Assembly (NCBI GenBank): GCA_022450585.1
Contig: JAKUPR010000007.1
Coordinates: forward strand, 1 to 58,524
Direction: 5' to 3'
DNA: 58,524 bases
DNA from: Anaerolineales bacterium
GTDB taxonomy: Bacteria; Chloroflexota; Anaerolineae; Anaerolineales; UBA11657
A program made the position numbers and the translations under genes. Shown here in pieces: positions 37,132 through 51,715 of this stretch (position 1 is the stretch's first letter; each line of letters opens with the position of its first letter). The notes under the pieces were generated by a model. It was not told the origin of the DNA. It saw only the letters and a list, made by a program, of their open reading frames with translations, and did no database searches.

Positions 37132-38712
37132 TTAATTTGTCCAGCTAGGGCTGCTAGTCTGCGCATCGTCTGTGAGCTGCTGTGCCAGTATTGATGTCTC
37201 TTCCACAATCCACAGGTCCCCCCGATGGATAAGTGCAATTTGATGGCCTGAGGGAGACCATGCGACTGTTTGAGGTTTTATTCCTGCCTCACCCTCTGGG
37301 GGGAATATGGCAGTTGTGTTGCTTCCGTCCTGATCCATTAACGCAAGCTGATAGCGACTACTTAAACTATGCAGTGGATCGAGTGCTTGCAGAAAAGCGA
37401 TTCGGTAGTTACTCATTGATGATGCATGAATTACCGGGGATGCCCACATCCCGCTGCGTTCTGCTAAAGTTACCTGAAAACTGCCATCTAGCGCAATCGC
37501 GGATAAATTGAATACGGGGCTATGTTCAGGCTGTTCTAATCCAACGGGCGCTGCATGTGTGACTGTATAGAGGAATCGACCGTCAGGTGACCATGACATG
37601 GAAGGGAGCCAGACCCAGTCATCCCATGTTTGCAAGTGGGAGAACGTCGTCAGTCTTTGCAGTGTTGTTTGAGCAGGGTTGCTGATATCTATGATTCCGA
37701 CGGCGTCAGCCTGTGAATAGGCAAGTTGCTGTCCGCCTGGAGCCCATGCGAAACTCATTCCATACCACCCATAACTGCCGCCTGCGGACGGCTCGAGTAA
37801 AATAGTCTCATTCTGGACTGTACCTTCTTCGTCGAAGACAACCAAGCGGAGGTCATTGTTTGCTTGCCAGCCGGGCATGGTGTTGCGCGGTTCGCCTGTT
37901 GACAATGCCAGTGTACGCTCCTCTTGTGGGGTCCAGGATGCCCATAGTACGTTTTCATATTGCAGAGAAAAAGGTACGGGCTGGTTGACCTGGGTGGATA
38001 CAACCCAGAGTTCATTAAATGCCCCGCTAGAATTAGCATCTTCCCCTTTGGGGAGAGTGCGAGTGTACAGCAGATATTCACCGTTACTTGAGAGTTGGAA
38101 AACGCGCCCATCGAGACCACCAGCCACAGTGAGTGGTTTGCGACTGCCACTGGAATTACGCATAATCCAGGCGTTGCCAGTGGAAAGATACGCCAGAGTG
38201 CCCTCGATTGGAATTACGGTGAAAGATGAATGTGCTCCTACCATCACGATTTCATCAAGAGGATCGCTGATGATGGTGCGTCGTAGTATAGCTTTCGAAA
38301 CCTCTACACCGTCTTCCAAAACAATACGGTACGTAATTTCTTCCAATCCGCTTTGCCCGGTTTGTAGCAATCGTGTTTCGCCCACTGGGAGGCCCTCGTT
38401 GCGTACCACTTGTTTTTCAAACGGTATCACCGCCTCTTCCCTTTCCAGTTTTTCTTGTACTCGCCTAACTGTGATTTGCATTCCGTCAGTGAGTGCGGTA
38501 AATTCACTTGGAGAAACGCGGTCGAGTTTTTCAAGGATTATGTTTTGTTCGGAAAGAACATCACGTACGACGTTGCCAGAACTGGTCACCATGCTGCTCT
38601 GTCCGTCATGAATGACTCTGACTGAGACTTGCGCTGGGGCGGGTGTACTGACTGATTGGCATGCTGCTAGACAGAGCAGGGCTGCCAACAGATGCGTTTT
38701 CGTCTTTCGCAC
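37132..38712 (-). CDS. Lipoprotein with DUF348/G5 domains and a TolB-like beta-propeller
   Basis: GTG 38712 gives VRKTKTHLLAALLCLAAC (lipobox); IPFE.....L..GE....Q.G..G (G5); repeated WSPDG/WSPSG/WAPGG. The track's extension to 39168 overlaps rplY. Confidence 0.82.
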   Translation of the reverse strand: MRKTKTHLLAALLCLAACQSVSTPAPAQVSVRVIHDGQSSMVTSSGNVVRDVLSEQNIILEKLDRVSPSEFTALTDGMQITVRRVQEKLEREEAVIPFEKQVVRNEGLPVGETRLLQTGQSGLEEITYRIVLEDGVEVSKAILRRTIISDPLDEIVMVGAHSSFTVIPIEGTLAYLSTGNAWIMRNSSGSRKPLTVAGGLDGRVFQLSSNGEYLLYTRTLPKGEDANSSGAFNELWVVSTQVNQPVPFSLQYENVLWASWTPQEERTLALSTGEPRNTMPGWQANNDLRLVVFDEEGTVQNETILLEPSAGGSYGWYGMSFAWAPGGQQLAYSQADAVGIIDISNPAQTTLQRLTTFSHLQTWDDWVWLPSMSWSPDGRFLYTVTHAAPVGLEQPEHSPVFNLSAIALDGSFQVTLAERSGMWASPVIHASSMSNYRIAFLQALDPLHSLSSRYQLALMDQDGSNTTAIFPPEGEAGIKPQTVAWSPSGHQIALIHRGDLWIVEETSILAQQLTDDAQTSSPSWTN

Positions 38713-38736
38713 GAGCCGAATCGAAGCATACCTTTC

Positions 38737-38765
38737 TTGACGAAAATGGCCAGTCACGCTACAAT
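38737..38765 (+). promoter_or_regulatory. sigma70 promoter of rplY
   Basis: TTGACG, 17 nt, TACAAT. Confidence 0.7.
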
Positions 38766-38893
38766 CAGCGCGCTTCAGGGAAGAGCGCGTGTGCGTCGTT
38801 CGATGGGGCCAATTCCGCCGCATGAGGTGGGAGGTCCCTTTTTGTCCGCCTGCACCAGCTGCCACGAAAGCATTATAATCAAGGTGACACTCG

Positions 38894-39586
38894 ATGGAAA
38901 CCTTATCACTTACTGCGCAGAAGCGCGACACGGTTCGTAAAGGCCTAAACCGGCTCCGCCGCGAGGGTTTTTTGCCTGCTGTGTTATATGGACCAGGTGT
39001 AGAAGCCATACCCTTGCAATTGCCGGCACACCAGGCCGGGCAATTGCTGAATCGCATACGTGGCACAGTGCTACTTGAATTGTCAGTAGATGGCGAGAAA
39101 CACACAACGATTGTACGCGATTTGCAGCGTGACGTATTACTGGGAACTCCATTGCATGTGGACTTCATGGCAGTTGCGATGGATCAGAAGTTGACTATTA
39201 CGGTGCCAATCCGTCTTGTGGGAGAAGCCCCGGCAGTGGCCACTGGAGAGTATGCAGTTATGACTGGGATTAGCGAGGTGGAAGTAGAGTGCCTCCCTAG
39301 GGATATGGTCAACTCTCTGGAAGTCAGTGTCGATTCACTGGCTGAGCTGGGAGACACTTTGACTGTGGCTGATGTAGATGCCCCTCCGGGTGTCACCATT
39401 ATCTCTGATTCCGGAGATAATGTGGCTCGCGTGGCCTATGCTGGCATTCTAGAGACCGAAGAGGAAGAGGAAGAAGATGTATTCGATCTTGATGCCGAGG
39501 ATGTAGAAGTGATTGAAAAGGGCAAGATCGACGAGGAAGACGGAGAAGATGGGGGTGAAGGAGAGCAGTCTCGAGAAGAAGCTTAA
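38894..39586 (+). CDS. rplY: 50S ribosomal protein bL25 / Ctc, long form with acidic tail
   Basis: LRREG..PAVLYG, Q.D......HVDF, VPI.LVGE, CLP. Glu/Asp-rich C-terminus. Confidence 0.93.
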   Translation: METLSLTAQKRDTVRKGLNRLRREGFLPAVLYGPGVEAIPLQLPAHQAGQLLNRIRGTVLLELSVDGEKHTTIVRDLQRDVLLGTPLHVDFMAVAMDQKLTITVPIRLVGEAPAVATGEYAVMTGISEVEVECLPRDMVNSLEVSVDSLAELGDTLTVADVDAPPGVTIISDSGDNVARVAYAGILETEEEEEEDVFDLDAEDVEVIEKGKIDEEDGEDGGEGEQSREEA

Positions 39587-39634
39587 GTATTCTGGTTAGA
39601 ACATTAACCAATCACTCAAGATTTTACAGTCACG

Positions 39635-39665
39635 ACCGCTAATTCTGATGAGTTGGCGGTTTTCT
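39635..39665 (+). terminator. Intrinsic terminator after rplY
   Basis: accgctaattc-tgat-gagttggcggt stem with G-U pairs, followed by a T-run. Confidence 0.65.
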
Positions 39666-39680
39666 ATATGTGTAAACGAG

Positions 39681-40262
39681 TCATCTCATTTCTGCTTTCT
39701 CGAGAAGTGCCAGCGTTATGCGGGCGCTTGCCCCCCATATGACGTGTCTGTCGTATGGTAGGAAATAGAAAGCCGATTGTGTCGTTCCGTCACGTGGGTC
39801 AGTGTAAGGATGTTTGGTCAGGTTTTTTGGGTTAGCCAGCCATTTTAGGGGTACGGGGAAAATCGCTTCTATCTCCCGGCAATTGAATTGGAATGGGTAT
39901 GCCTGTGGAATTATGGCTACTACTGGTGTAATGTGCCATCCCGTGACTGTGCTGCAAGGTGACAGGCATCCTAGTACTGTGGCATCATCTGGGCACAGGC
40001 CGATTTCTTCATGCGCTTCCCGCAGAGCAGTGTCGGTGCGCGTCCTATCATTTTCCTCAACCGCGCCTCCCGGGAATGCGACTTGACCTTTGTGTTCTCT
40101 CACGGTTTTTGTGCGCCGAGTTAATAGCAGATGCCATTTTTCCGATTCATCCCACAGAGCAAGAAGTACAGCTGCACATCGTTCTCCGTCCGTTGATTGA
40201 GAGCAATGATCGGGCGGATGTAGACGGCTACGTAAAACCTCGGGCAGGTTGGGATGTATCAT
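39681..40262 (-). CDS. Nudix hydrolase, CoA pyrophosphatase family
   Basis: AAVL, LLT.R......H.GQVAFPGG, ALREA.EEIG, IWGASA. Confidence 0.9.
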   Translation of the reverse strand: MIHPNLPEVLRSRLHPPDHCSQSTDGERCAAVLLALWDESEKWHLLLTRRTKTVREHKGQVAFPGGAVEENDRTRTDTALREAHEEIGLCPDDATVLGCLSPCSTVTGWHITPVVAIIPQAYPFQFNCREIEAIFPVPLKWLANPKNLTKHPYTDPRDGTTQSAFYFLPYDRHVIWGASARITLALLEKAEMR

Positions 40263-41059
40263 ATATTAGAGTCCTGCTGAAGTTCCTCGGTATGCAGCGC
40301 ACGAGAGAATACGAGGTAGCCGGTGTGCGCGACCATTCTGTCGCTTGGTCTGAACCGTGCCACTACAGTTTTGTAATTGCGCAACATCACCTCAACTACT
40401 TCGGTCATCCCGAATGAATGGAGTTTTAACTCGGCAATCAGGGAGATTACTTGATTGGTGGTTGGCAGCAGTGTGCCGAAAAAGCCTCCTCCGCGCAGCG
40501 CGTGGTGCACTTGTGACAAGTAATCCCACGGATTGGGTACGTCCAGAAATAGTGCAGGGATATCGCGTTCGTCAAATCCTTCCTTGATATCGCGTGTTTT
40601 TAGGTTGACACGTGTGGACAAGCCTACCAGTTCTAGGTTGTTCAGAGCGACATTCTGCATATCGGCACGCGAATCATAGGAGTGCACGAGGCCACTTGGC
40701 CCAACCGCACGGGCCAGAGCTATAGTTAACGCGCCGCTACCGGTTCCAGCTTCAATCACTTCTTGACCTGACTCGATTGAAAGTTTTAGTAGAATCAATC
40801 CTATGTCTTTGGGAAAAATAATCTGAGACCGGCGTTTGAGCGTGCGTGTGATTTCTGCTGCAGAAGGGGTTAGTAGAAGGAAGTCAGTGCCAAGATGGGA
40901 GTGTACGATACTTCCGAAAGGATGCCCTACAAGATCCACGTGATTAATGAATCCATTGTGGGTTTCAAGCCTATTTTCGGGTTGAATGCGGAGTAGAAAT
41001 GATTTCAAGTCGCGCATGCTTACTAGCTGGACTAGATCACCGATCTCCGCTGAGTGCAT
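40259..41059 (-). CDS. trmI: tRNA (adenine(58)-N1)-methyltransferase (TrmI/GCD14)
   Basis: R.SQII.PKD, EAGTGSGALT, LD.P.PW, RP..RMVAHTGYL. Confidence 0.92.
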   Translation of the reverse strand: MHSAEIGDLVQLVSMRDLKSFLLRIQPENRLETHNGFINHVDLVGHPFGSIVHSHLGTDFLLLTPSAAEITRTLKRRSQIIFPKDIGLILLKLSIESGQEVIEAGTGSGALTIALARAVGPSGLVHSYDSRADMQNVALNNLELVGLSTRVNLKTRDIKEGFDERDIPALFLDVPNPWDYLSQVHHALRGGGFFGTLLPTTNQVISLIAELKLHSFGMTEVVEVMLRNYKTVVARFRPSDRMVAHTGYLVFSRALHTEELQQDSNI

Positions 41060-41172
41060 GGTTACTCTCCGTTCTTTATGGGAGGAGGCATTATACTATA
41101 CTGGCATAACGTAGTTTGCCAACTTGGTTGTAGTACACTCTTGAAGCTGTCTGAGGAGCGACCGTCAACTTC

Positions 41173-42558
41173 ATGCGACTGATATACCGATTTTTGTCGA
41201 CTTTATGTGTGTTGATAGCTGTCAGTTCCGTAGCTGCTGCTCAGAATTCCGAAGGACCTTTTTACGACGTTGAGCCAGGTGATACGCTGTTTTCTATTGC
41301 CAACCAATTTGGATTAACAGTGCAAGCTATTCAGGATACTAATGCAATCACTGATCCATCGATTTTAGCAATTGGGCAGCGGCTGTTGTTGCCGGGTTAT
41401 GATGGTATCGTTGGACTGGTGGGAACCCGCCCACTTCTTCTAGGAGAAAGCATACGTACACTTCCCGTGCAACTAGCAAATGAGCGGAACATTCTGGTGC
41501 AACTAAATCGAATTATCAATCCTGCAGCGCTTTACTTGGGACAGCCTTTGATTCATCTTGAACCTGACGAATTGGGAACTGCGCCCACAGGTGAATTTGT
41601 CATAGCAGGTTTGAAGGATACGATGATTGGACTGGCTTTGCGTGCGGGCACTAGCCCATTTGAACTCAAGCTCATTAATGGTTGGCCCACTAAACGTTTG
41701 CTTTTGGCTGGTGATTTTGTCTACCTACCTGGAGGCAAAATACTAGAGAATCTTCCGACACCATTCAGGCATATTAGCATTGTTCCAGAGCGTCCGGAAC
41801 AGGGTCAGACGGTGGTCCTTAGGGTAATGGGGGAATCCGAAGGCACTGTGACTGGACGATTTGGAGAGGATGAATTAAACTTTTTCGAAACAGAAAATCA
41901 ACATGTAGCACTTTTTGGCATTGATGCTATGGTTACTCCGGGGGTATACCCTCTTGTAATGTCAGTGAGTACAGCGGATGGCGACTCGGCGGCATTGGAA
42001 ATACGAATACCGGTATCAGATGCTGGTTATCAAATGCAGAGCATTGTATTACCGCCAGGGAAAGCACAGCTGCTACTCGATGAGGAAGCGCGCACTTCTG
42101 AAGATGTAGCCATCAAGAGCGCAGCGACAGGTTTTAGCTCGTATGGGCATTGGGATGGAAAATTCCAGTCTCCGATAACGTCAGACTATATCACCACGCA
42201 TTTTGGGTTACGGCGCAGCTACAATGGCGGCCCCTTTCAAACACTTCATGGTGGGGTGGATTTCGGTGCTCCGGAGGGTACACCTATACACGCGCCGGCT
42301 GCCGGAGAGATTGTACTTGCTGAAGAGTTGCGTATACGTGGCAATGCTACCCTGATTGATCATGGATATGGGGTGTATACTGCTTATTGGCATCAGAGCG
42401 AGTTGTCGGTCAGTGTTGGGCAGAAAGTGCAGTCGGGAGAAGTAATCGGCCATGTGGGAGATTCCGGTCTTTCCACCGGTCCGCATTTGCACTGGGAAGT
42501 ATGGGTTAATGGAGTACGGGTGGATCCTTTGGAGTGGCTAGGAGCGAAGATTCCATAA
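41173..42558 (+). CDS. Secreted LysM-domain M23 metallopeptidase
   Basis: Signal peptide; Y.VEPGDTL..IA (LysM); H.G.D, IDHG.G..T.Y.H, STGPHLHWE. Confidence 0.92.
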   Translation: MRLIYRFLSTLCVLIAVSSVAAAQNSEGPFYDVEPGDTLFSIANQFGLTVQAIQDTNAITDPSILAIGQRLLLPGYDGIVGLVGTRPLLLGESIRTLPVQLANERNILVQLNRIINPAALYLGQPLIHLEPDELGTAPTGEFVIAGLKDTMIGLALRAGTSPFELKLINGWPTKRLLLAGDFVYLPGGKILENLPTPFRHISIVPERPEQGQTVVLRVMGESEGTVTGRFGEDELNFFETENQHVALFGIDAMVTPGVYPLVMSVSTADGDSAALEIRIPVSDAGYQMQSIVLPPGKAQLLLDEEARTSEDVAIKSAATGFSSYGHWDGKFQSPITSDYITTHFGLRRSYNGGPFQTLHGGVDFGAPEGTPIHAPAAGEIVLAEELRIRGNATLIDHGYGVYTAYWHQSELSVSVGQKVQSGEVIGHVGDSGLSTGPHLHWEVWVNGVRVDPLEWLGAKIP

Positions 42559-42575
42559 AAAAGGAGTTCTAGAAT

Positions 42576-43703
42576 ATGAATGTTGACGGAAAACATTACT
42601 ATGCTATTTGGATGAAACCTGGTAACCATCGAATCGTCCAAATTATCGACCAGCGTTGGCTGCCGCATAGGTTTGTGGTAGAAGATTTAGCTACGGTGGA
42701 GCAAGCGGCTCGAGCCATCGGCGACATGCATGTACGTGGTGCTCCGCTGATAGGTGTGACTGCGGCTTACGGAATGTATCTAGCTGCTCTCGCTGCGCAA
42801 AATGAATCAGCAGATAACTTTGCTAATCAGATGCGTAAGGCAGCAAAGATGCTGCGCTCGTCTCGTCCGACAGCCATTAATCTTGGATGGGCTTTGGATC
42901 GTCAGCTTGAGCATGTGGGGGTTTCCGGCGGTGATATAGAGGTACAAATTCAATCTTTGCTAAATGAGGCTAGAGCAATTTCGGATGAGGAGTTAGAGGC
43001 CTGCCGTCTTATCGGTGAAAACGGAGTGGGTATCATTGAGTCCATCAGTCAAGAAAAGAATGAAGAGACGGTCAATATTCTTACACACTGTAACGCGGGT
43101 TGGCTAGCGTGTGTCGATTACGGTACTGCCACTGCTCCAATATACTGTGCTCATGATCGTGGGATTAAGGTGCATGTGTGGGTGGATGAGACACGTCCAC
43201 GTAATCAAGGAGCACGCTTAACTGCGTGGGAATTGGGCGAACATGGTGTGGCGCATACAGTCGTAGCGGATAATGTAGGTGGGCATCTGATGCAGCATGG
43301 TTTGGTTGACATGGTAATTACTGGTACTGACCGAACCCTTTATACCGGTGATGTGGCCAACAAAATTGGTACCTACCTGAAGGCCCTTGCTGCACATGAT
43401 AATGGTATACCTTTTTATGTGGCACTACCCTCTTCTACGTTTGACTGGGAGCGCAGCGATGGTGTTACGCAGATTCCTATCGAAGAACGGGATGCATCTG
43501 AGGTGAAGACCATTCGCGGACTTAGTGAGGGTGAAATCCACTCGGTACTGCTAACTCCGGAGGAAAGCCCGGCTGCAAACTTTGCCTTTGATGTGACCCC
43601 CGCTAGGCTAGTGACATCTCTTGTTACCGAACGTGGCATATGTGCGGCCTCCGAGGAGGGCATAAGAGGTCTTTTCCCAGAGCACTTCTTGGAGAAAGTC
43701 TGA
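42576..43703 (+). CDS. mtnA: S-methyl-5-thioribose-1-phosphate isomerase
   Basis: [44 protein letters not shown]. Confidence 0.95.
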
Positions 43704-43909
43704 AGCATGAGCAACAAGGATATAAATCATGTTGGGAGATAAATAAGCATTTCGTTTCTGTAGATGCTTACGTTCTGTCGATGGTGCAGATAATTATCTA
43801 CATTCTCGGTTACCGAATCTCATCTGATAAATGTCAGACTACAGCGTTGGAATAGACTATGGATTTGATGGGAGTGAGCCAGATTATAGACTAATGTTGG
43901 CAGGTAAAT

Positions 43910-43939
43910 TTGACATTTTCTGGGAACTGAACGTATAAT
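43910..43939 (+). promoter_or_regulatory. Consensus sigma70 promoter for the 43991-46091 operon
   Basis: TTGACA (43910-15), 18 nt, TATAAT (43934-39). Confidence 0.8.
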
Positions 43940-43990
43940 ACGAAAATTCCAAACACTGATTTGCCACGTTCTTAATCCCCTTAATTCCCT

Positions 43991-45601
43991 GTGAAAAAAA
44001 CGCAAAAACGAGTTGTTGCGGATTGGGTCGAGTCATTTTGTCTCCACCCTGATGATTATGATCATCTTGCCGACCGTTTGCTGGAGTCATCGACTCCATG
44101 GAGTAATGAGGAAGTAGCCCTGTCACTCTTAATTTTCAAATTAATGCAGGAGGAAAGGTCGCAAGGAAAAACGCAGCGAGGTAACGGAAATGTGGAAATC
44201 TATCGTCCGGACAAGGGTTATGAACCTGGTCAGGCTCTGCGTTTCCCGGTGCTTGAAGATATTGAAGGCAAGGTAATTTCGGTACGTAAAGGCTTTAACT
44301 GGACAGATGGAGAATTCCGAGTAATTGTGGTTTCCTGTGATGATAACTGTACCCGTGAGTTTGCAAGTATGTTGCCGAAGCATGCCCTCAGCACCGATGA
44401 TTTAGGCTTGTCTGGAATCGAAGGACAAACTGTCGATGAATTTGCACGGTTTTTACTGCGTGAACACGGCACCCATTTGTGGGGTCAGATTAAGAAAGAC
44501 TTGATCTCGCGCGGAGAGATTGTATGTTTAGCTGGGTACTGGTTTCCACGTGATTTGTTGGTTGAGATAAGTAGTGGCCACTTGAACTTGGTAGAAGCAA
44601 TCCTAGATGTATCCGCCGGTGGCCCGCTTACACCAGAGGAGATTCTACAACAGCTGGGGGTTAGGGCAGACGGGGACCGTCAGTTAATGATCTTCTCTCT
44701 CAATTATGCACTTCAGCAGGATCAGCGTTTTGACGAGGTAGGTCCTTCAGGGAGCGTACTATGGTTCTTGCGTAGCATGGAACCTACTGAAATTATCTTT
44801 CCTCCTGAGCGACTGCGCTGTCAGCCTGTGGTACCGGATGTTCATTTGCTCTCGCCTGATTTAGAGCAACTGGCGTTGCATTTGCATGACGAATTTAGTC
44901 CAGAAAACGAGTCTTATGGTGCCGAAGGACCGGTGGAGATGGTTCTCTCTTATCCTCATCGGTGCACTGGAACATTGCCGCTGGGTGCGAACACGGCACA
45001 TATTTTTCCAGAGGCGCAAATATCGCCGCGAATTAAGATCACGATTCGTGATGCTCTGTCTGGAGATCAGCTGCCGGGATGGGTGGTGCAGCATGAGAGA
45101 TTTGTCTCTGGTCTTGGCCCACTGTATGAGAAATATGAAGTTCCAGCTGGTGCTCGTATTACGCTCCTTCCGTGCGCTGCCTCGAGTGAGGTGTTGGTAC
45201 AAATAGACCTGCGCAAATCAGTTCGAGAGTGGGTCCTCACTGCGTCGGCAGTGGATGATAAACTGCGCTTTCGTATGAGTAAACGCTTGGTCGGTGTACA
45301 TTATGCGGAAGAGCAAATTATTGCAGTGGATGACGTAGAGGACGTTGAGGCAGTCTGGGAGCGGCTGCATAAGAATAGGGTCGCTCTAGAGCATACTGTG
45401 CTTGAAGTATTCCGTGAACTAGTCCAACTTACCCCGCAGGGGGCTGTGCATGCGAAGACTCTATATAGTGCTGTCAATGTGGCACGCCGTACCCCTCCAG
45501 AGCCTGTTTTTGGAGAGCTTTTGAAGCGCTCTTATTACCGGCACGTTGGTGAAGCTTATTGGACACATGATTCAGATAGTGAGGATCGTTACACCGATTA
45601 A
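43991..45601 (+). CDS. Hypothetical multidomain protein with predicted nucleic-acid/RNAP-interacting modules
   Basis: 536-aa clean ORF behind a consensus promoter. Tudor-like, winged-helix and B3-like segments recognised by eye. Confidence 0.75.
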   Translation: MKKTQKRVVADWVESFCLHPDDYDHLADRLLESSTPWSNEEVALSLLIFKLMQEERSQGKTQRGNGNVEIYRPDKGYEPGQALRFPVLEDIEGKVISVRKGFNWTDGEFRVIVVSCDDNCTREFASMLPKHALSTDDLGLSGIEGQTVDEFARFLLREHGTHLWGQIKKDLISRGEIVCLAGYWFPRDLLVEISSGHLNLVEAILDVSAGGPLTPEEILQQLGVRADGDRQLMIFSLNYALQQDQRFDEVGPSGSVLWFLRSMEPTEIIFPPERLRCQPVVPDVHLLSPDLEQLALHLHDEFSPENESYGAEGPVEMVLSYPHRCTGTLPLGANTAHIFPEAQISPRIKITIRDALSGDQLPGWVVQHERFVSGLGPLYEKYEVPAGARITLLPCAASSEVLVQIDLRKSVREWVLTASAVDDKLRFRMSKRLVGVHYAEEQIIAVDDVEDVEAVWERLHKNRVALEHTVLEVFRELVQLTPQGAVHAKTLYSAVNVARRTPPEPVFGELLKRSYYRHVGEAYWTHDSDSEDRYTD

Positions 45602-45611
45602 TTAATTCTCT

Positions 45612-46091
45612 ATGACTGAAGCATCATCTATTACATCTGTCTTGTCTACTGCACTGCGGATGAAAATGGACACGCCATTCCATATAGATTTCGACTGGTG
45701 GGAACATCAGAGGCGGGAATATGTATTCTATATGCGCAGCCATTTGTGCGAAGAGCATCAGTACAAGTTTGTGTCAGAGGAAGATGATGATGACCAGATG
45801 TTGGACTGGGTGGATTCGCGTACAGGGCAGGTGTGTCGCCTCGATTACCTGCATTACACGCTACGCACCCATTGTGCTATCCATCCGGAATTCTTGACTA
45901 AGCGTGCCTCACTGGTTGATGTAATTTTCCGCCTTTTCATTGCGAATGGCAATCAGCCACTAACGGTGACAGAACTGGCATTGCGCATTGGTCGTGAAGG
46001 TCAGGAAAAGACCATTTTTCGTACTCTCGCGGACGAGAGCTTGAGCAAGGGACTGCGTCCAGTGCAGTCAGGTAGCGGTACTAATGTGTGA
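45612..46091 (+). CDS. Hypothetical protein with Cys/His cluster and C-terminal winged helix
   Basis: 10 nt downstream of the previous gene. DTPFHIDFDWW, HLCEEH...HC, SLVDVIFR.F.ANGN.PLT..ELA..IGR. Confidence 0.75.
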   Translation: MTEASSITSVLSTALRMKMDTPFHIDFDWWEHQRREYVFYMRSHLCEEHQYKFVSEEDDDDQMLDWVDSRTGQVCRLDYLHYTLRTHCAIHPEFLTKRASLVDVIFRLFIANGNQPLTVTELALRIGREGQEKTIFRTLADESLSKGLRPVQSGSGTNV

Positions 46092-46354
46092 GCAGGATCA
46101 AAGATAAATCTAGATTATTAGCGACGATTCGATTGCGGTTATGTGATGAGTCACCATCTTAGCAGCAGAGTTTATGACGTGTCGTGATATAATTCACAAT
46201 GTATTAAGGGTGTCTTGGCGAGACCTTAGCGCGTTGTACTCCGGCACTGTGGCAGAGTCCTAATATCCCTTGCCTGATGATTGTCATTTTTGGCTTACGC
46301 CTTACAGATTGCGGTGATCATCTTGATAAAGAGCTAAGGAAGGAACAAAGCAAA

Positions 46355-46774
46355 ATGAATCTGTTGTTGTGGGTCCTGCAAGTAATTTTTGGAATCTATT
46401 TTTTCATTGTGGGAATTCTCCATTTCGTTATGCTCGTTATGCCGCCGAGATTGCCCGCTGCTATGGATTGGATGTACGACCTGTCTCCTGGACTACACTA
46501 CTTTAGTGGAGCGGCCGAGATTTTGGGAGGACTAGGGCTAATATTACCCGGAATCACTAGAATTCAGACCCGGCTTACTTCGTTAGCTGCTGTTGGCCTT
46601 GCGATAGTCATGGTCGGAGCAATCTTTTGGCATGCTCAGCGAGGTGAATTTCAAAACTTAGGACTGAACTTCATCCTTGGTGCACTAGCCTGCTTTATTG
46701 CTTATGGTCGCTGGAAAATACAACCACTCGCTGCTCGTGATACTCGTGATACTCGTGATACTCGTGATATATGA
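46355..46774 (+). CDS. DoxX-like family membrane protein
   Basis: LW.LQ......F...G..H, G.AEILGG.GLILP, LAA.GL..VM.GA...H. SD aaggaagg before ATG 46355. Confidence 0.85.
   Translation: MNLLLWVLQVIFGIYFFIVGILHFVMLVMPPRLPAAMDWMYDLSPGLHYFSGAAEILGGLGLILPGITRIQTRLTSLAAVGLAIVMVGAIFWHAQRGEFQNLGLNFILGALACFIAYGRWKIQPLAARDTRDTRDTRDI
46734..46769 (+). repeat. 9-bp perfect tandem repeat (ctcgtgata)x4 encoding the RDT-RDT-RDT-RD tail
   Basis: Directly visible. Confidence 0.95.
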
Positions 46775-46891
46775 ATGGATCATTGATAGATTATCAGAAG
46801 AGAATTTGCAAGTAAGACAAGGGGATAATATCATTGGTATCTCTAGTCTCAAAAGAGGGAGAAGCTTCAAGACAGACATGGAAATTTCATT

Positions 46892-48190
46892 GTGAATCTT
46901 TACGCAGACCGAACCTTTCGGATTGACACAGAAAACGCATTCAAAATCGGGACGCACGTCGCAGGTGTGGAACAGAAATTTGGGGATGTTGTAAAACTCA
47001 CTCTTGGTGAACCGGATTTTCCCGTACCGATACACATAAAGGATGAGATCAAGCGCCAGCTCGATTTAGACAACACTCATTACTGTGACCCTAAGGGTGT
47101 ACTAAGTTTGCGGCAGGCAATTGCCCACCAAGTGAGTGCCACGCGGGGATTGGACGTTAATCCCGAGAGGGTTGTCGTATTTCCTGGTGGTAAACCACCT
47201 ATAGGGTTTGTTCAACAGGTTTATTGCAATCCTGGAAACGAGGTGATCTATCCAAGTCCTGGATTCCCGATTTATGAGTCCTTTATCTCCTATGTCGATG
47301 GAGTGCCCGTGCCATTACACTTGGACGAATCCTCCAATTTTACTTTCTCATCCGATCAGCTTTCGCAACTGATTTCACCTAGTACCAAGCTGATCTATCT
47401 CAATTCTCCTTCAAACCCGACAGGTGGCGTAGTATCACCAGAACAGCTGGAAGCCATCGCAGCGACTATCCTGGATCAATGTCCTGCGGAGGTCAGAGTG
47501 TATTCAGACGAAATCTATGAAAACATTATGTTTGATAATAATAAGCATCATTCAATTGCATCCTTGCCAGGGATGGAAAGTCGCACAATCATTGCCAGCG
47601 GATTTTCAAAAACATATTCTTGGACAGGCGGTCGAATTGGGTATGCAGTTTTTCCGACTGAATCGGAAGCAGATGTCTTTAAGAATCTTAATATCAATTA
47701 TTTTTCCTGTGTAACACCGTATAATCAGGAAGCAGCTCGACTTGCATTGGAAAGTCCTTTGTCCGTGCCTGCTGTCAGTAAGATGGTTTCCACTTTTCAA
47801 GAACGCCGAGACGTTATCTGGGAGAGATTGAATCGTATGGACGGAATCACCTGTCAAAAACCTCTTGGTGCTTTCTATCTCTTTCCAAACATAAGCGGAA
47901 TTTGCGAAAACCTTGGCCTCATTGATTATTACCAGGGCATGAGTGCTGCGGATAAGGAACTAACCTCGCCAGCCGGTCTGTTTCAAATGTTCGCCCTTTA
48001 CTGTCACCGCGTGGCTGTTATGGATCGAAAATCTTTTGGTAGGCTAGGTTCGGAGGGTCAACATTATATCCGTTTGTCGATTGCTTCTGATTTGGCAGTG
48101 CTAGAGGATGGCATAGCTCGCTTGAATGACGCTGCGCAAGATAATGAAGGGATAAATCATTTCTTGGATACCCGGCCTGATCTGCAATGA
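46892..48190 (+). CDS. PLP-dependent aminotransferase class I/II
   Basis: GEPDF, NSPSNPTG, SDEIY, SGFSKTYSWTGGRIGY, P.GAFYLFP. Confidence 0.92.
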   Translation: MNLYADRTFRIDTENAFKIGTHVAGVEQKFGDVVKLTLGEPDFPVPIHIKDEIKRQLDLDNTHYCDPKGVLSLRQAIAHQVSATRGLDVNPERVVVFPGGKPPIGFVQQVYCNPGNEVIYPSPGFPIYESFISYVDGVPVPLHLDESSNFTFSSDQLSQLISPSTKLIYLNSPSNPTGGVVSPEQLEAIAATILDQCPAEVRVYSDEIYENIMFDNNKHHSIASLPGMESRTIIASGFSKTYSWTGGRIGYAVFPTESEADVFKNLNINYFSCVTPYNQEAARLALESPLSVPAVSKMVSTFQERRDVIWERLNRMDGITCQKPLGAFYLFPNISGICENLGLIDYYQGMSAADKELTSPAGLFQMFALYCHRVAVMDRKSFGRLGSEGQHYIRLSIASDLAVLEDGIARLNDAAQDNEGINHFLDTRPDLQ

Positions 48191-48438
48191 CAATGGATAT
48201 AGCAAAAACCCGATATTTCTCTAAGTATCTTGTGGGACAAACATACATGTACTTTGAACATAGAAACATGTTCGGCAAGGGGTAACAGAGTCCTAGTTTA
48301 CTGGTCAGATTCGGTAACGTTCTCTGTTCAGTCTCCAAAGTAGTTACTGTCCCAAGTTTGTGTGCATCTACGTATGTAGAGTAACGTAGTATACTGTGCA
48401 CTTGGTTTATTTCTCGAGGTAACCAAACGGGAATAATT

Positions 48439-50064
48439 ATGAGACAAGTAATCATCGCGGTGATGGCCTCCCTACTTCTTTGGTCCTGCGTCCCATCTAC
48501 AGAAGACACCGATGATATTGCAGGGGACATCGCAACAACTTTGGTTGTGGAAACTGCAGAAGCGGACGCTAAGTTTTCTCAATCATTGCAGCAAACAGAG
48601 ATAGCTACATCGACTAGTGCTGCTACTGGAACTGTCCCTGCTGCTCCAACACAGGCATCTGTGCCTACTTTTACTGAATCCTGGACTTCTACACCAACCA
48701 GTACAAGTACTGCTTATCCTACTCCTAAGGCGACTCAAAATACAATAGCAACGGCAATTCCTACAGGTGATGTAGAAGTAGTTGAGGACTCTGTATCGGT
48801 GGGTCAGATAAATGTTCTTCTTGGCAATTTAAGGTCCGGTCCTGGGACTGAATATGATGTCGTTACTCAGTTGCCGACTGGCACCGAGTTAGATTACATG
48901 GGACGTTCCAATGACTCTGAATGGTTTAAGGTTTCCGTTACATCAACAGGAGAAATTGGATGGGTGTCGCAAATAATTGTCGAACTGGATTTTGAGATTG
49001 ATACACTTGACGAGGTGGTAGAGATACCGCCGTTGCCCACAGCCGCTCTCACCCAATCCCCTGAGCCTACTGTTACTACTGCGCCGGTTGTCAGTGGATC
49101 TACTCAGTTCAGTTTAGGTGGCCAAGTGATTCACGGGGGTCTACTAGCGATTGACAAAATGCAGGCCATGAAAATGAGCTGGGTAAAGCTTCAGAATTAT
49201 GACCTAGGTGGTGCTACAGTGGAGGGTGACATCCAGAACGCGCATAATAACGGCTTGAAGATTCTGGTGAGCATTAAGGACAACGCGGGTCACACACGCA
49301 TTGCGTCTCCGGATTATCAGGAGCAGTTCATACAGTATCTTGAGCGGGTGGCTACGCTTGGTGCAGATGCTATTGAGGTGTGGAACGAACCTAATCTTGA
49401 TCGCGAGTGGCCGGCAGATCAGATGGGAGGCGCGAATTATACTGAGTTGCTAAAGAAAGCATATCCGCGCATCAAGGCGGCGAATCCTAACACGATGGTT
49501 ATAAGTGCTGCCCTATCACCCACGGGAGCATTTTCTGGAGGGTGCGGATCTATTGGTTCTGTTTATGGATGTGACGACAAGCCTTTTCTACAGGATATGG
49601 TCAATGCCGGTGCTCTTAATTATCTTGACTGTGTTGGCATGCACTACAACGAGGGTTTGCTTGCGCCCAGCGCTACTTCTGGTGATCCGCGCGGAAACTC
49701 GGGGCATTACACTCGTTATTTCCGCGGTATGTTGGACACGTATGGGGCTATTCTTGGGGGTGCGCGGTCAATTTGTCTGACTGAGATTGGTTATCTAAGC
49801 GGCGAGGAATGGGGCTATCTGCCCTCAGCGTTTTCTTGGAATCCCGCTAGTCCGGTAAACATGAGCGTGGCGCAGCATGCTGATTATCTTGGCCAGGCGG
49901 TTACTCTGGCACGTCAGACTGGCAACATTCGCCTGATGATAATTTTCAATGTAGACTTTGCTATACTGAAGAGTATGGAGGATGACCCGCAGGCGGGCTA
50001 CTCACTGATACGTCCTAATCAGAGTTGTCCTGCTTGCAGTATAATTTCTGCCGCCATGCCGTGA
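48439..50064 (+). CDS. Lipoprotein: Pro/Thr linker, SH3b and GH-A clan glycoside hydrolase
   Basis: Lipobox LLWSC; NLRSGPGT.Y...GWVS (SH3b); EVWNEPN (acid/base) and LTEIGY (nucleophile). Confidence 0.85.
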   Translation: MRQVIIAVMASLLLWSCVPSTEDTDDIAGDIATTLVVETAEADAKFSQSLQQTEIATSTSAATGTVPAAPTQASVPTFTESWTSTPTSTSTAYPTPKATQNTIATAIPTGDVEVVEDSVSVGQINVLLGNLRSGPGTEYDVVTQLPTGTELDYMGRSNDSEWFKVSVTSTGEIGWVSQIIVELDFEIDTLDEVVEIPPLPTAALTQSPEPTVTTAPVVSGSTQFSLGGQVIHGGLLAIDKMQAMKMSWVKLQNYDLGGATVEGDIQNAHNNGLKILVSIKDNAGHTRIASPDYQEQFIQYLERVATLGADAIEVWNEPNLDREWPADQMGGANYTELLKKAYPRIKAANPNTMVISAALSPTGAFSGGCGSIGSVYGCDDKPFLQDMVNAGALNYLDCVGMHYNEGLLAPSATSGDPRGNSGHYTRYFRGMLDTYGAILGGARSICLTEIGYLSGEEWGYLPSAFSWNPASPVNMSVAQHADYLGQAVTLARQTGNIRLMIIFNVDFAILKSMEDDPQAGYSLIRPNQSCPACSIISAAMP

Positions 50065-50095
50065 ACCATCTGCGAACTAACCATATATCTTGCGT

Positions 50096-50126
50096 AAAAA
50101 GCCGCCAATTTTATTGGCGGCTTTTT
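50096..50126. terminator. Bidirectional intrinsic terminator
   Basis: aaaaagccgccaat-ttt-attggcggcttttt. Confidence 0.85.
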
Positions 50127-50326
50127 GTTGGGTTGACTATTGGTATGGCCACTTTTTTGTGGCCTGATTAAGTGGTATTGGGACGTGCATCTTCTTATGA
50201 TTGACACGATGATGCTGCTCCAGCACGTTGTATACTTGATATAGAGAGGAGTGTCGAGTAGCTTGCGTTAATATTGTAAGTACCCACTTGCGCAAGAGCA
50301 ACTTGGTTCATGGTATTGATCTGATT

Positions 50327-51715
50327 ATGCGTCTTATGAACGCTGTCATCCTGTTCGGGGCCATGCTGTCACTGGCTGTATCTGTGGCCACGGCTGGTGT
50401 TGCAAATGCGGCGCTAGAAACACCGGATCCGGTAATCCATGTGGTGAAGTCTGGTGACAATCTCGGGCGACTTTCAGAGCGGTACGGAATTAGTATAGGT
50501 GCTTTGGCACTTGCAAATGATTTGACCAGCTCAGTTATCCATTTAGGCCAACATTTGGTGATTCCAGATCATGACTCGCCTACGAATCCCGAAGCGAGGG
50601 GTAGTGATCCTAGCCAAGCGATTACCTACGTGATAAGGAGCGGCGATTACCTAGGGCACGTGGCGCAGGAGTATGGTACTACGGTCAAGGCGATAATGGA
50701 CGCCAACAATCTTGCGTCGCCACTAGTCATCACTGACCAGTTCATAAATATCCCGCCTAGGTCAGGCTATGACAATGGAGCTGTGGTTACAATGGATGTG
50801 GCGGAGACCGCAGCTGATAGTGGGGATGAGATCGTAGAACTTGACGATGAAGTCGATGAGCTTGAAGCACGGATGCGTCAGGAGTTGGACAACGCCAATT
50901 ACCCTTACGCTTTCACGGAGTCATCGGCCGAGATAACTAGGGTGTATCAGGATACGGTCACCGGAGAAACGGCCGGTCCGGTTAACGTTGTCGTGGAATA
51001 TTGGACACACGTTAGTGAAAAGCGGTATGAGGATGCATGGGGACTCCTCAGCGACGGTTTTAAGGCGCGGGCACACGATACTGTTTTTGAGGATTACGTC
51101 AATAGTTACCGTGATATGTCACTGTGCAGTGCGGAGGCAAAAAATGTGGAGGTCGTCAGCTATGGTATCGTCCAGACCATTGTTAATACTGATGTGACCT
51201 ACAGGACCGGTGCAGATTGCACTACTCTAGAGTTCAAACTTACCCTTACCTTGCAATCGGTGCAGACTTCTGGAGAATGGAACATAGAGAGGGTTGCAGT
51301 TACCCAATCTGTGGATGAATATGCACTGGAACTGGATCCTAGCAATGGAGAATTGAAGTGGATTGACGTCGATATTAGTGCCCAGCGCGTGTATGCTATG
51401 GTGGGAAACCGCCGCGTGCGTGAGTTCGTTGCATCGACTGGGATTGCTCGCTATCCTACTGTAATCGGGCAATTCGAGGTCTGGGTGAAACTCAGAACGG
51501 ATGATATGCGGGGTGTCGATTTAGGGGTGCCTTGGTACCTGCCTGATGTTCCATATGTGATGTACTTCTTCAGTGATTATGGTATCCACGGCACTTACTG
51601 GCATGACAATTTTGGTACTCCAATGAGTCATGGCTGTATAAATCTGAGCATAGAGGATGCAGAATGGCTTTATAATTTTTCCGAAGTGGGAACAGCAGTT
51701 AACGTACATTATTGA
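50327..51715 (+). CDS. L,D-transpeptidase (YkuD) with two LysM domains and a central alpha/beta domain
   Basis: Signal peptide; HVVKSGDNL and YVIRSGDYL (LysM); WIDVD.S.Q, STG, IHGTYWH...G...SHGCIN. Start uncertain (50288 vs 50327). Confidence 0.9.
   Translation: MRLMNAVILFGAMLSLAVSVATAGVANAALETPDPVIHVVKSGDNLGRLSERYGISIGALALANDLTSSVIHLGQHLVIPDHDSPTNPEARGSDPSQAITYVIRSGDYLGHVAQEYGTTVKAIMDANNLASPLVITDQFINIPPRSGYDNGAVVTMDVAETAADSGDEIVELDDEVDELEARMRQELDNANYPYAFTESSAEITRVYQDTVTGETAGPVNVVVEYWTHVSEKRYEDAWGLLSDGFKARAHDTVFEDYVNSYRDMSLCSAEAKNVEVVSYGIVQTIVNTDVTYRTGADCTTLEFKLTLTLQSVQTSGEWNIERVAVTQSVDEYALELDPSNGELKWIDVDISAQRVYAMVGNRRVREFVASTGIARYPTVIGQFEVWVKLRTDDMRGVDLGVPWYLPDVPYVMYFFSDYGIHGTYWHDNFGTPMSHGCINLSIEDAEWLYNFSEVGTAVNVHY

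Follow-up and report, generated by a model that had tools for sequence, protein, structure and literature searches.

A strictly paired, class-wide two-gene unit of Anaerolineae encodes a predicted B3 and winged-helix protein and a small partner with a putative metal site

A 58,524-nucleotide (nt) stretch of DNA from an Anaerolineales bacterium (contig JAKUPR010000007.1 of assembly GCA_022450585.1; hereafter the window) carries a two-gene unit that encodes a large protein of 536 amino acids (aa) and a small partner of 159 aa. The pair is class-wide in Anaerolineae, single-copy, strictly paired and strongly promoted. In the predicted structures, the large protein is composed of an N-terminal helical region, a small β-barrel, a first winged helix (WH1), a B3-type pseudobarrel and a second winged helix (WH2), and the partner joins a domain with a putative metal site to a small winged helix (Table 1). 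We hold with moderate confidence that the pair forms a non-enzymatic, nucleic-acid-binding two-protein complex, which is a housekeeping and most likely regulatory unit in Anaerolineae. The family is new and its folds are already known; no paper on the family was found in the literature searched, by which we do not claim its absence from print.

Of 8000 candidates scored against the large protein, 1910 are homologues at E ≤ 0.001, and the search with the partner returned 493; none of the 120 rows listed per protein bears a functional name, all being "hypothetical protein" of Chloroflexi or Anaerolineales. When 1.84 billion cluster representatives were searched with a profile, 1004 matched at E ≤ 0.001; 638 of these remained at a cut-off of 1e-10 and 291 at 1e-30. 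Among 301 sampled Chloroflexota genomes, the large protein has one match per genome in 27/27 genomes of the same order and in 6/6 others of the same class, and outside Anaerolineae it has weak partial matches only. Among species genomes of GTDB, 568 of 599 candidate stretches encode a relative of the large protein. The 80 loci kept from this search carry titles of Anaerolineae, Anaerolineales, Aggregatilineales, Thermoflexales, Phototrophicales or Chloroflexi, and include the cultured Longilinea arvoryzae, two bins labelled Pleurocapsa and two labelled only "bacterium". The gene immediately downstream of the large gene is the small gene in 29/29 loci and in 78/78 of the kept loci that extend at least 480 nt further, the remaining 2 of the 80 ending too early for its presence to be judged. 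This co-occurrence, which has no exception where it is testable, bears out the lineage-specific two-protein unit proposed in a preliminary description that had been made from the nucleotide sequence. Two deep lineages have short large proteins (G210, 266 aa; G290, 251 aa), which stop after WH1 and are followed by the partner gene; the C-terminal half was not found elsewhere in these two genomes with the query used.

The consensus promoter and the two open reading frames (ORFs) 10 nt apart (gap at 45602–45611) that the preliminary description reported are confirmed from the sequence. An exact TTGACA-N16-18-TATAAT occurs once in the whole 58.5-kb window, where shuffles expect 0.04 copies and 4 of 100 shuffled windows contain at least one. 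The upstream region was aligned with those of four relatives (L058–L061), whose large proteins are 46–65% identical; the −35 and −10 hexamers are invariant in 5/5 sequences and the surrounding bases diverge. Within 260 nt upstream of the large gene, a site with at most 1 mismatch in 12 is present in 24 of the 97 related loci with upstream sequence of that length, against a mean of 0.4 in 20 mononucleotide shuffles, and a site with at most 2 mismatches is present in 55, against 4.3; because the loci are kin, these counts are not independent events. A strong promoter upstream of the pair is clearly a kept feature. In the 5′-untranslated region (5′-UTR), the box CTGATTTGCCACGT is kept in the window and in L058, L059, L060 and L061 while neighbouring bases diverge. 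Its core is found upstream of only 5 of the 97 loci, four of which are close relatives, and the box is thus confined to close relatives and one other locus. Possible roles of this box (also written TTTGCCAC) are those of an operator or an RNA element. Between positions 43400 and 46500, no terminator-like site was found. One marine oligo-dT RNA library contains two 151-nt contigs on 44388–44538 and 44679–44829, a negligible quantity that is too little to demonstrate transcription, a start site or an operon.

AlphaFold2 models were built on the family alignments. The large protein was folded as the cluster representative P0001, whose single difference from the window protein is H323P, with a predicted local distance difference test (pLDDT) score of 88.0 and a predicted template modelling (pTM) score of 0.71. 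The model was searched with Foldseek and with VIA-align against 48,161 chains, and the latter search was followed by a second look. The four parts named in the preliminary description lie in the model where they had been placed. No row of the Foldseek search reaches E ≤ 0.001; plant B3 domains head the list (probability 0.99–1.00, TM score 0.54–0.64, E 0.016–0.1), and its lower rows include the N-terminal domain of LlaJI.R1 (probability 0.97), BfiI (0.75) and an RPOE–RPOC model (0.54). In VIA-align, residues 312–409 match the B3 domain of FUS3 (6j9b) with a Z score of 11.0, a root mean square deviation (RMSD) of 2.5–2.6 and 96/106 residues aligned, followed by the LlaJI.R1 N-domain (Z 9.1–10.1), ARF1 (8.9), the BfiI C-terminal domain (8.2), EcoRII-N (7.4) and the NgoAVII B3 domain (7.2). 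In the second look, 17/17 top rows were B3 domains (Z 9.4–11.0, 92–99 residues, RMSD 2.3–3.4). The B3/EcoRII-N-like barrel predicted earlier is thus recovered at Z 11.0 with FUS3 and Z 7.4 with EcoRII-N, and the B3 fold assignment of the model is solid.

B3 domains are known from plant transcription factors and from the DNA-recognition modules of a few restriction enzymes. Comparison with these domains revealed that (i) residues 312–409 superpose on FUS3, VAL1 and ARF-type B3 domains over nearly the full length; (ii) the start of the barrel has an L-P-L...F-P pattern, a resemblance seen by eye only; (iii) the barrel of the large protein is extended by extra strands to approximately residue 446, and the Pfam B3 family does not match it; and (iv) the barrel is located between two winged helices in a class-wide bacterial protein, which is neither a plant factor nor fused to a nuclease.

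The further winged helix that the preliminary description had seen ending in YRHVGEAYW corresponds to WH2. Its best matches are Fur (9ire, Z 9.3, 63 residues aligned, RMSD 2.1) and the C-terminal winged helix of MCM (2ma3, Z 9.0, 64 aligned, RMSD 1.7), followed by linker histone and forkhead domains at Z 8 and the winged helix of DpnI (4esj, Z 7.2). Both WH1 and WH2 are solidly assigned as winged-helix folds in the model, where WH1 occupies residues 195–260 and the barrel between the two winged helices residues 312–446. The most conserved motifs of the large protein, GHLNLAEAvLD..GGPL and FSLNYALQ.D.RFDEVGP.G.VLWFL, are located in WH1. The region between the β-barrel and WH1 includes a loop that is disordered in the model (residues 137–144).

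The identity of WH1 bears on an alternative in which the pair is a general factor associated with RNA polymerase (RNAP): the CarD/TRCF-like barrel and the delta-like WH1 would dock onto RNAP, and the B3 barrel and WH2 would touch promoter DNA. We consider this alternative unlikely. WH1 best matches a TFIIE-type (TFIIE-beta) domain (5fyw_X, Z 8.3), and three entries of the delta subunit (RpoE of Firmicutes) are among its best matches: 8x6g_E (Z 7.9, 74 aligned, 18% identity), RPOE 9a6y_A (Z 7.7) and 6zfb_D (Z 7.2). The chain 8x6g_E appears to be the delta N-domain, judged by its residue range 13–89 and by PMC11156646, which describes the delta N-domain as resolved in a sigma-B complex and bound to beta-prime between shelf and jaw; 6zfb_D is presumably also a delta chain. 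These delta matches are tied, within 1 Z, with TFIIE-beta, Z-alpha (7.7), forkhead and MarR types. The HARE helix-turn-helix (HARE-HTH) family PF05066 does not match the large protein, and its only match in the genome of the window at E ≤ 10 is located on another contig. Real HARE-HTH domains occur in 22/251 Chloroflexota genomes, in all cases in proteins other than the large protein, and at 1e-6 none of the 22 f2 and f3 genomes was matched. In hhalign, the WH1 sub-alignment runs in register with 17 real HARE-HTH domains over 62 columns, in which D.RF..VG of WH1 stands opposite sRF.r.GrG of the HARE-HTH profile, yet the probability is only 11.7%; the whole family alignment gives 10.8%, and the N-terminal helical region shows a faint helix-turn-helix-like similarity to the same domains (24.8%). 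The large protein also differs from delta in that no acidic tail follows WH1, as seen in both sequence and model, where folded domains come next. Of the delta-like HARE-HTH region proposed in the preliminary description, the winged helix stands, with delta among its best matches, but the family label does not distinguish itself from other winged helices and is a lead.

The barrel of residues 68–126 was likewise proposed to be a Tudor/CarD-like module. A five-strand barrel is present in the model, but its label comes from one Foldseek row, the N-terminal domain of Myxococcus xanthus CarD (2lt1, probability 0.93, TM score 0.49, E 0.34, 60 columns), and is also a lead; PetP (2n5u) is listed with a probability of 0.75 and an E above 0.2. 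The CarD/TRCF RNAP-interacting domain family PF02559 does not match the large protein at E ≤ 10, and its only match in the genome of the window is a 1054-aa Mfd-like ORF. Class-wide conservation and a strong promoter would suit a core transcription factor, and most of the 151 Chloroflexota genomes searched showed no stand-alone CarD; in nearly all of them PF02559 matches once, and in all but two of the cases listed the match is in a long ORF of the length expected for Mfd. A complementary distribution, in which the pair takes the place of CarD, was considered and rejected: the scarcity of stand-alone CarD spans the whole phylum and Anaerolineae are not special, which counts against the RNAP-associated factor. 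The tally for the partner (68/301, below) includes one genome flagged as unpublished, G227, and the tallies for PF02559 (151 genomes) and PF05066 (251) include others (G038 and G145); these genomes enter no other claim.

The AlphaFold2 model of the partner on its family alignment has a pLDDT of 81.2 and a pTM of 0.75. It has no clear fold match, the N-domain included (Foldseek best E 0.75; VIA-align best Z 4.2). Four residues of the N-domain, Cys46, His49, His87 and Cys88 (C-x2-H...H-C), are invariant in 48 aligned sequences, and the same four columns read CxxC...CC in 9/10 partner homologues from other classes. In structural zinc sites, Cys and His replace each other at fixed positions. Because C/H/H/C is swapped for C/C/C/C at fixed positions here, the site resembles a structural zinc site, and it probably binds zinc as judged from the aligned residues. 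The C-terminal unit comprises helices at residues 101–111, 119–126 and 132–140 and a strand at 148–150 in the model; residues 97–156 weakly match Z-alpha, MarR and IclR-type winged helices (Z 3.0–3.5, 50–57 residues, RMSD 2.1–3.3). Both the Cys/His site and the winged-helix-like tail noted beforehand are thus found again, the latter at the level of a weak match.

The absence of a recognisable catalytic domain, also remarked upon beforehand, holds in searches of Pfam, NCBIfam, PADLOC and PDB sequences. Neither protein has a match in Pfam, NCBIfam or PADLOC, which gave only rows far below the cut-off, and the profiles of the two family alignments match nothing among PDB sequences (best E 1 and 0.07). 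All entries matched in the ESM Atlas are unnamed Chloroflexota clusters, a Foldseek search of viral models yielded nothing at E ≤ 0.001, and hhalign found no real similarity between the large and the small family (15% probability).

Relatives of the large protein outside Anaerolineae place the module in other settings. The family hidden Markov model matches proteins of 450–736 aa in other Chloroflexota classes with E values of 1e-10 to 1e-21, and hhalign aligns the large family with these distant homologues at 97% probability over 240 columns. The matches cover the long helix, WH1 and the B3 barrel and, for roughly half of these proteins, also most of WH2; the shared region begins at the long helix, and the family profile matches from approximately position 145 onward. 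In eight loci checked with Pfam (L049, L050, L054, L176, L177, L181, L182 and L183), genes for a HEAT-repeat protein and FemAB come after that of the homologue; PIG-L is present in six of the eight, and some, but not all, have an upstream ROK gene or a downstream Mur ligase. HEAT is missing from L179, where PIG-L and FemAB are present, and L178 and L180 resemble the HEAT–FemAB loci in their gene sizes. In L177, neighbouring genes overlap or are at most 66 nt apart all the way from the homologue to the Mur ligase. The unnamed 540–736-aa proteins of these operons are true distant homologues through the long helix, WH1, B3 and WH2, but they have another N-terminal region, and the next gene is that of the HEAT-repeat protein with no Cys/His partner adjacent. 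In L176 and L177, a gene for a large lamin-tail-domain protein is located upstream of the operon.

In Anaerolineae, the commonest neighbours of the pair in 98 loci include a LysM+M23 peptidase upstream (20 loci), Hsp20 (15), a BamB-like protein (14) and Lon (8). MreC–MreD–PBP2 genes lie directly upstream of the pair in L031, and FtsZ is nearby in L044 and L048. Because the distant homologues stand at the head of operons for peptidoglycan precursors and the pair of Anaerolineae, as in the window, often adjoins cell-wall genes, the targets of the pair could be tied to cell-envelope synthesis or division. This tie is a tentative and rather doubtful proposal, yet it is the most specific lead; it comes from two very distant branches with different gene sets and from gene order in related genomes.

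A second alternative is a factor of DNA replication, repair or chromosome maintenance, in which a site-specific DNA-binding complex would act with replisome or repair enzymes; we regard it as decidedly improbable. Where distant homologues precede a bifunctional nuclease (BFN) domain gene, the latter is followed by DnaB in L052, L053 and L184 (with a DnaD-like gene also in L052) and by uracil-DNA glycosylase in L056. With the partner profile, homologues also turn up in 34 genomes outside the class (68/301 in all). In the ten loci fetched they stand alone, with no homologue of the large protein within approximately 4 kb, and the genes upstream of the stand-alone homologues in L139 and L143 are unrelated to the large protein. 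The neighbours of these stand-alone homologues include a Macro domain (3/10), YebC (2/10, one with RuvA) and nucleotidyl transferases (3/10), and exonuclease VII and an HhH-GPD glycosylase also occur beside stand-alone homologues in other classes. In L140, L141 and L142, a Macro-domain gene directly follows the stand-alone Cys4 homologue. The partner-profile search gave no longer, fused partner forms, which is weak evidence, and the partner domain was not found in the fused forms of the large protein. In Anaerolineae, rnpA, which encodes the protein of ribonuclease P, is among the three upstream genes in 13/98 loci, mostly on the opposite strand. Against a role in replication or repair, only a minority of the loci, which belong to related genomes, have such neighbours, the peptidoglycan operon is the commoner context of the distant homologues, and 9-mers resembling the DnaA box are not enriched upstream of the pair in the 98 loci. 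Inside the large gene, 9-mers with at most 1 mismatch from the DnaA box are 5–10 times as frequent at +900 to +1500 as in the flanks in these loci (30 and 16 matches in two 300-nt bins); this excess probably arises from the coding sequence, through a conserved peptide motif.

Prokaryotic B3-like domains are known from restriction enzymes, and those of LlaJI.R1, BfiI, EcoRII and NgoAVII match the model. A third alternative is that the pair is a sensor of a defence or restriction system based on DNA modification, which would recognise methylated or foreign DNA and call in effectors whose genes lie elsewhere. Seven long members of the family were scanned: in P0322 (979 aa) and P0327 (1105 aa), an N6 DNA methylase forms the C-terminus behind the complete module, and P0323 (671 aa) has an extension without a known domain; the methylase fusions are 2 of 150 listed representatives. 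P0327 is encoded on a metagenome contig after a helicase of more than 1504 aa (DinG-like plus DpdF/RecQ-like) and before a 289-aa type I specificity-like protein and a second N6 methylase, and its methylase part matches type I and mad2 models. Fusions of HARE-HTH domains to restriction endonucleases and N6A methylases in prokaryotes are reported in PMC4738411, and the rare methylase-fused relatives, which are a likeness of the large protein to HARE-HTH proteins, fit these published fusions. The pair itself has no PADLOC match and no nuclease or methylase family adjacent to it in the loci scanned. It is single-copy in 33/33 other Anaerolineae genomes, with divergence like that of orthologues, whereas defence systems are usually patchy. 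Real HARE-HTH domains are patchy as well (22/251 genomes) and belong to different proteins, and the methylase fusions are few. Because the pattern of the pair is universal and vertical, a defence sensor fits the fused relatives and not the pair, for which we consider it very unlikely. The reading of DNA modification raised in the preliminary description accordingly keeps an indirect foothold in the methylase-fused relatives, but the pair in the window is universal, vertically kept and outside any defence island.

In the regulatory complex that we prefer, the B3 barrel and WH2 would contact double-stranded DNA, since their structural relatives bind it. The N-terminal half, that is, the β-barrel and WH1, would hold the small partner, because the two deep lineages with short large proteins keep only this half and the partner. 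The complex would then mark or regulate specific chromosomal sites. Several observations weigh against this proposal. DNA binding is predicted from the folds, and B3 and winged-helix folds can also bind protein; the winged helix of the delta subunit, according to PMC11156646, binds RNAP rather than DNA. Binding of the large protein and the partner to each other is likewise a prediction. PF02362, the B3 family, has no match at E ≤ 10 anywhere in the genome of the window, and the metal ligands are missing from the partner of G290 and from one homologue of another class. The pair is conserved in Anaerolineae, but the gene neighbourhood, whose conservation across Chloroflexota the preliminary description had raised, varies beyond it, with Lon/Hsp20/redoxin, rnpA or M23 peptidase by lineage, and the M23 linkage may be inherited synteny because the genomes counted are related. 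Four distant homologues precede a BFN domain gene instead of the HEAT–FemAB genes. The FemAB genes of the genome of the window are on another contig (C63) and its only HEAT_2 match is on a third (C1); the link to the peptidoglycan operon is therefore not kept in this genome.

A bolder version of the cell-wall lead may be formulated, although we think it unlikely to hold: an undescribed, Chloroflexota-wide B3 and winged-helix family would be a DNA-binding master regulator of peptidoglycan or envelope synthesis, or a coupler of chromosome and cell wall. In Chloroflexia-type lineages, a member of the family would head the operon ROK-X-HEAT-PIG-L-FemAB-Mur ligase, and the Anaerolineae member would have left the operon, gained the Tudor-like N-terminal half and the zinc/winged-helix partner, and become a universal stand-alone unit. 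The methylase-fused relatives would indicate that the module came from DNA-modification systems or passed into them.

Other features surround the pair. An unnamed and well-conserved protein of approximately 141 aa (MGRVIN.DS.GK.RNQ.MR...WEKRDYWMKAEE) is encoded directly downstream on the same strand in 17/98 loci; its cluster representative has no Pfam match, and in lineages of the Phototrophicales and Aggregatilineales types this protein is a candidate third member of the operon. The neighbour cluster "unk117" was rejected as a real gene, as it looks like a spurious ORF, which we take by eye to be possibly antisense to rpmH. In the window, the region 37132–51715 around the pair is rich in cell-envelope genes; a class I/II aminotransferase gene flanking the pair, a NUDIX gene and a gene for a TrmI/GCD14 tRNA methyltransferase are also present. 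The C-terminus of the DoxX-like ORF carries four copies of RDT, implying a 9-nt tandem repeat at the 3′ end.

Table 1. Coordinates of the two-gene unit, of the domains predicted in its products, and of genes and loci related to it (window positions unless a locus is named).
Feature	Position	Strand	Description or basis
Sigma-70-type promoter	43910..43939	+	−35 TTGACA, 43910-43915; 18-nt spacer; −10 TATAAT, 43934-43939
Conserved 5′-UTR box CTGATTTGCCACGT	43956..43969	+	Core TTTGC[C/T]AC; ~20 nt after −10; upstream alignment
Large gene	43991..45601	+	536 aa, GTG start; ORF call; no enzyme domain recognised
N-terminal helical region, aa 1-64	43991..44182	+	Helices 2-14, 20-33, 39-64; model
Small five-strand β-barrel, aa 68-126	44192..44368	+	Model strands
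Long helix (aa 148-174) and β-hairpin (177-186)	44432..44548	+	Leads into WH1; model
WH1, aa 192-264	44564..44782	+	Three helices and wing; model, structure matches
B3-type DNA-binding pseudobarrel (predicted), aa 309-446	44915..45328	+	Core 312-409; model, structure matches
WH2, aa 449-536	45335..45598	+	Three helices and wing, ends ...HVGEAYW; model
Small partner gene	45612..46091	+	159 aa, ATG start; ORF call
Partner N-domain, aa 17-90	45660..45881	+	Putative four-ligand metal site C46, H49, H87, C88
Partner C-terminal small winged helix, aa 97-156	45900..46079	+	FRvFlANGNQPLT..EL motif; model, weak matches
G5/DUF348 protein	37132-39168	−	Window
M23+LysM peptidase	41173-42558		Window, flanks pair
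MtnA	42576-43703		Window, flanks pair
DoxX-like ORF	46277-46774		Window, flanks pair
SH3_3 protein	48439-50064		Window
LysM-YkuD L,D-transpeptidase	50288-51715		Window
~141-aa downstream gene, example	L032:6482-6991	−	One of three examples; 14 more loci
~141-aa downstream gene, example	L075:5014-5451		
~141-aa downstream gene, example	L077:5016-5438		
Packed operon: ROK, 540-736-aa homologue, HEAT, PIG-L deacetylase, FemAB, Mur ligase	L177:541-8115	−	Other Chloroflexota classes
Homologue–BFN locus	L052:4330-6937		Other classes
Homologue–BFN locus	L053:449-2319	−	Other classes
Homologue–BFN locus	L184:722-2592	−	Other classes
Homologue–BFN locus	L056:3976-5075		Other classes
Restriction-like operon	L175:3-9089		Metagenome contig; contains P0327

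The B3 domain is found here in a single-copy protein that is kept by a whole bacterial class and whose homologues elsewhere in the phylum are encoded within cell-wall synthesis operons. The case shows parts that are common to DNA-reading modules of the defence type and to housekeeping regulators. Because both families are large (1910 and 493 homologues) and unnamed, thousands of genes would gain an annotation from a function for the pair. Anaerolineae are abundant bacteria of filamentous form that are poorly tractable, and a class-specific core DNA-binding complex would provide a handle on the regulation of their growth or envelope.

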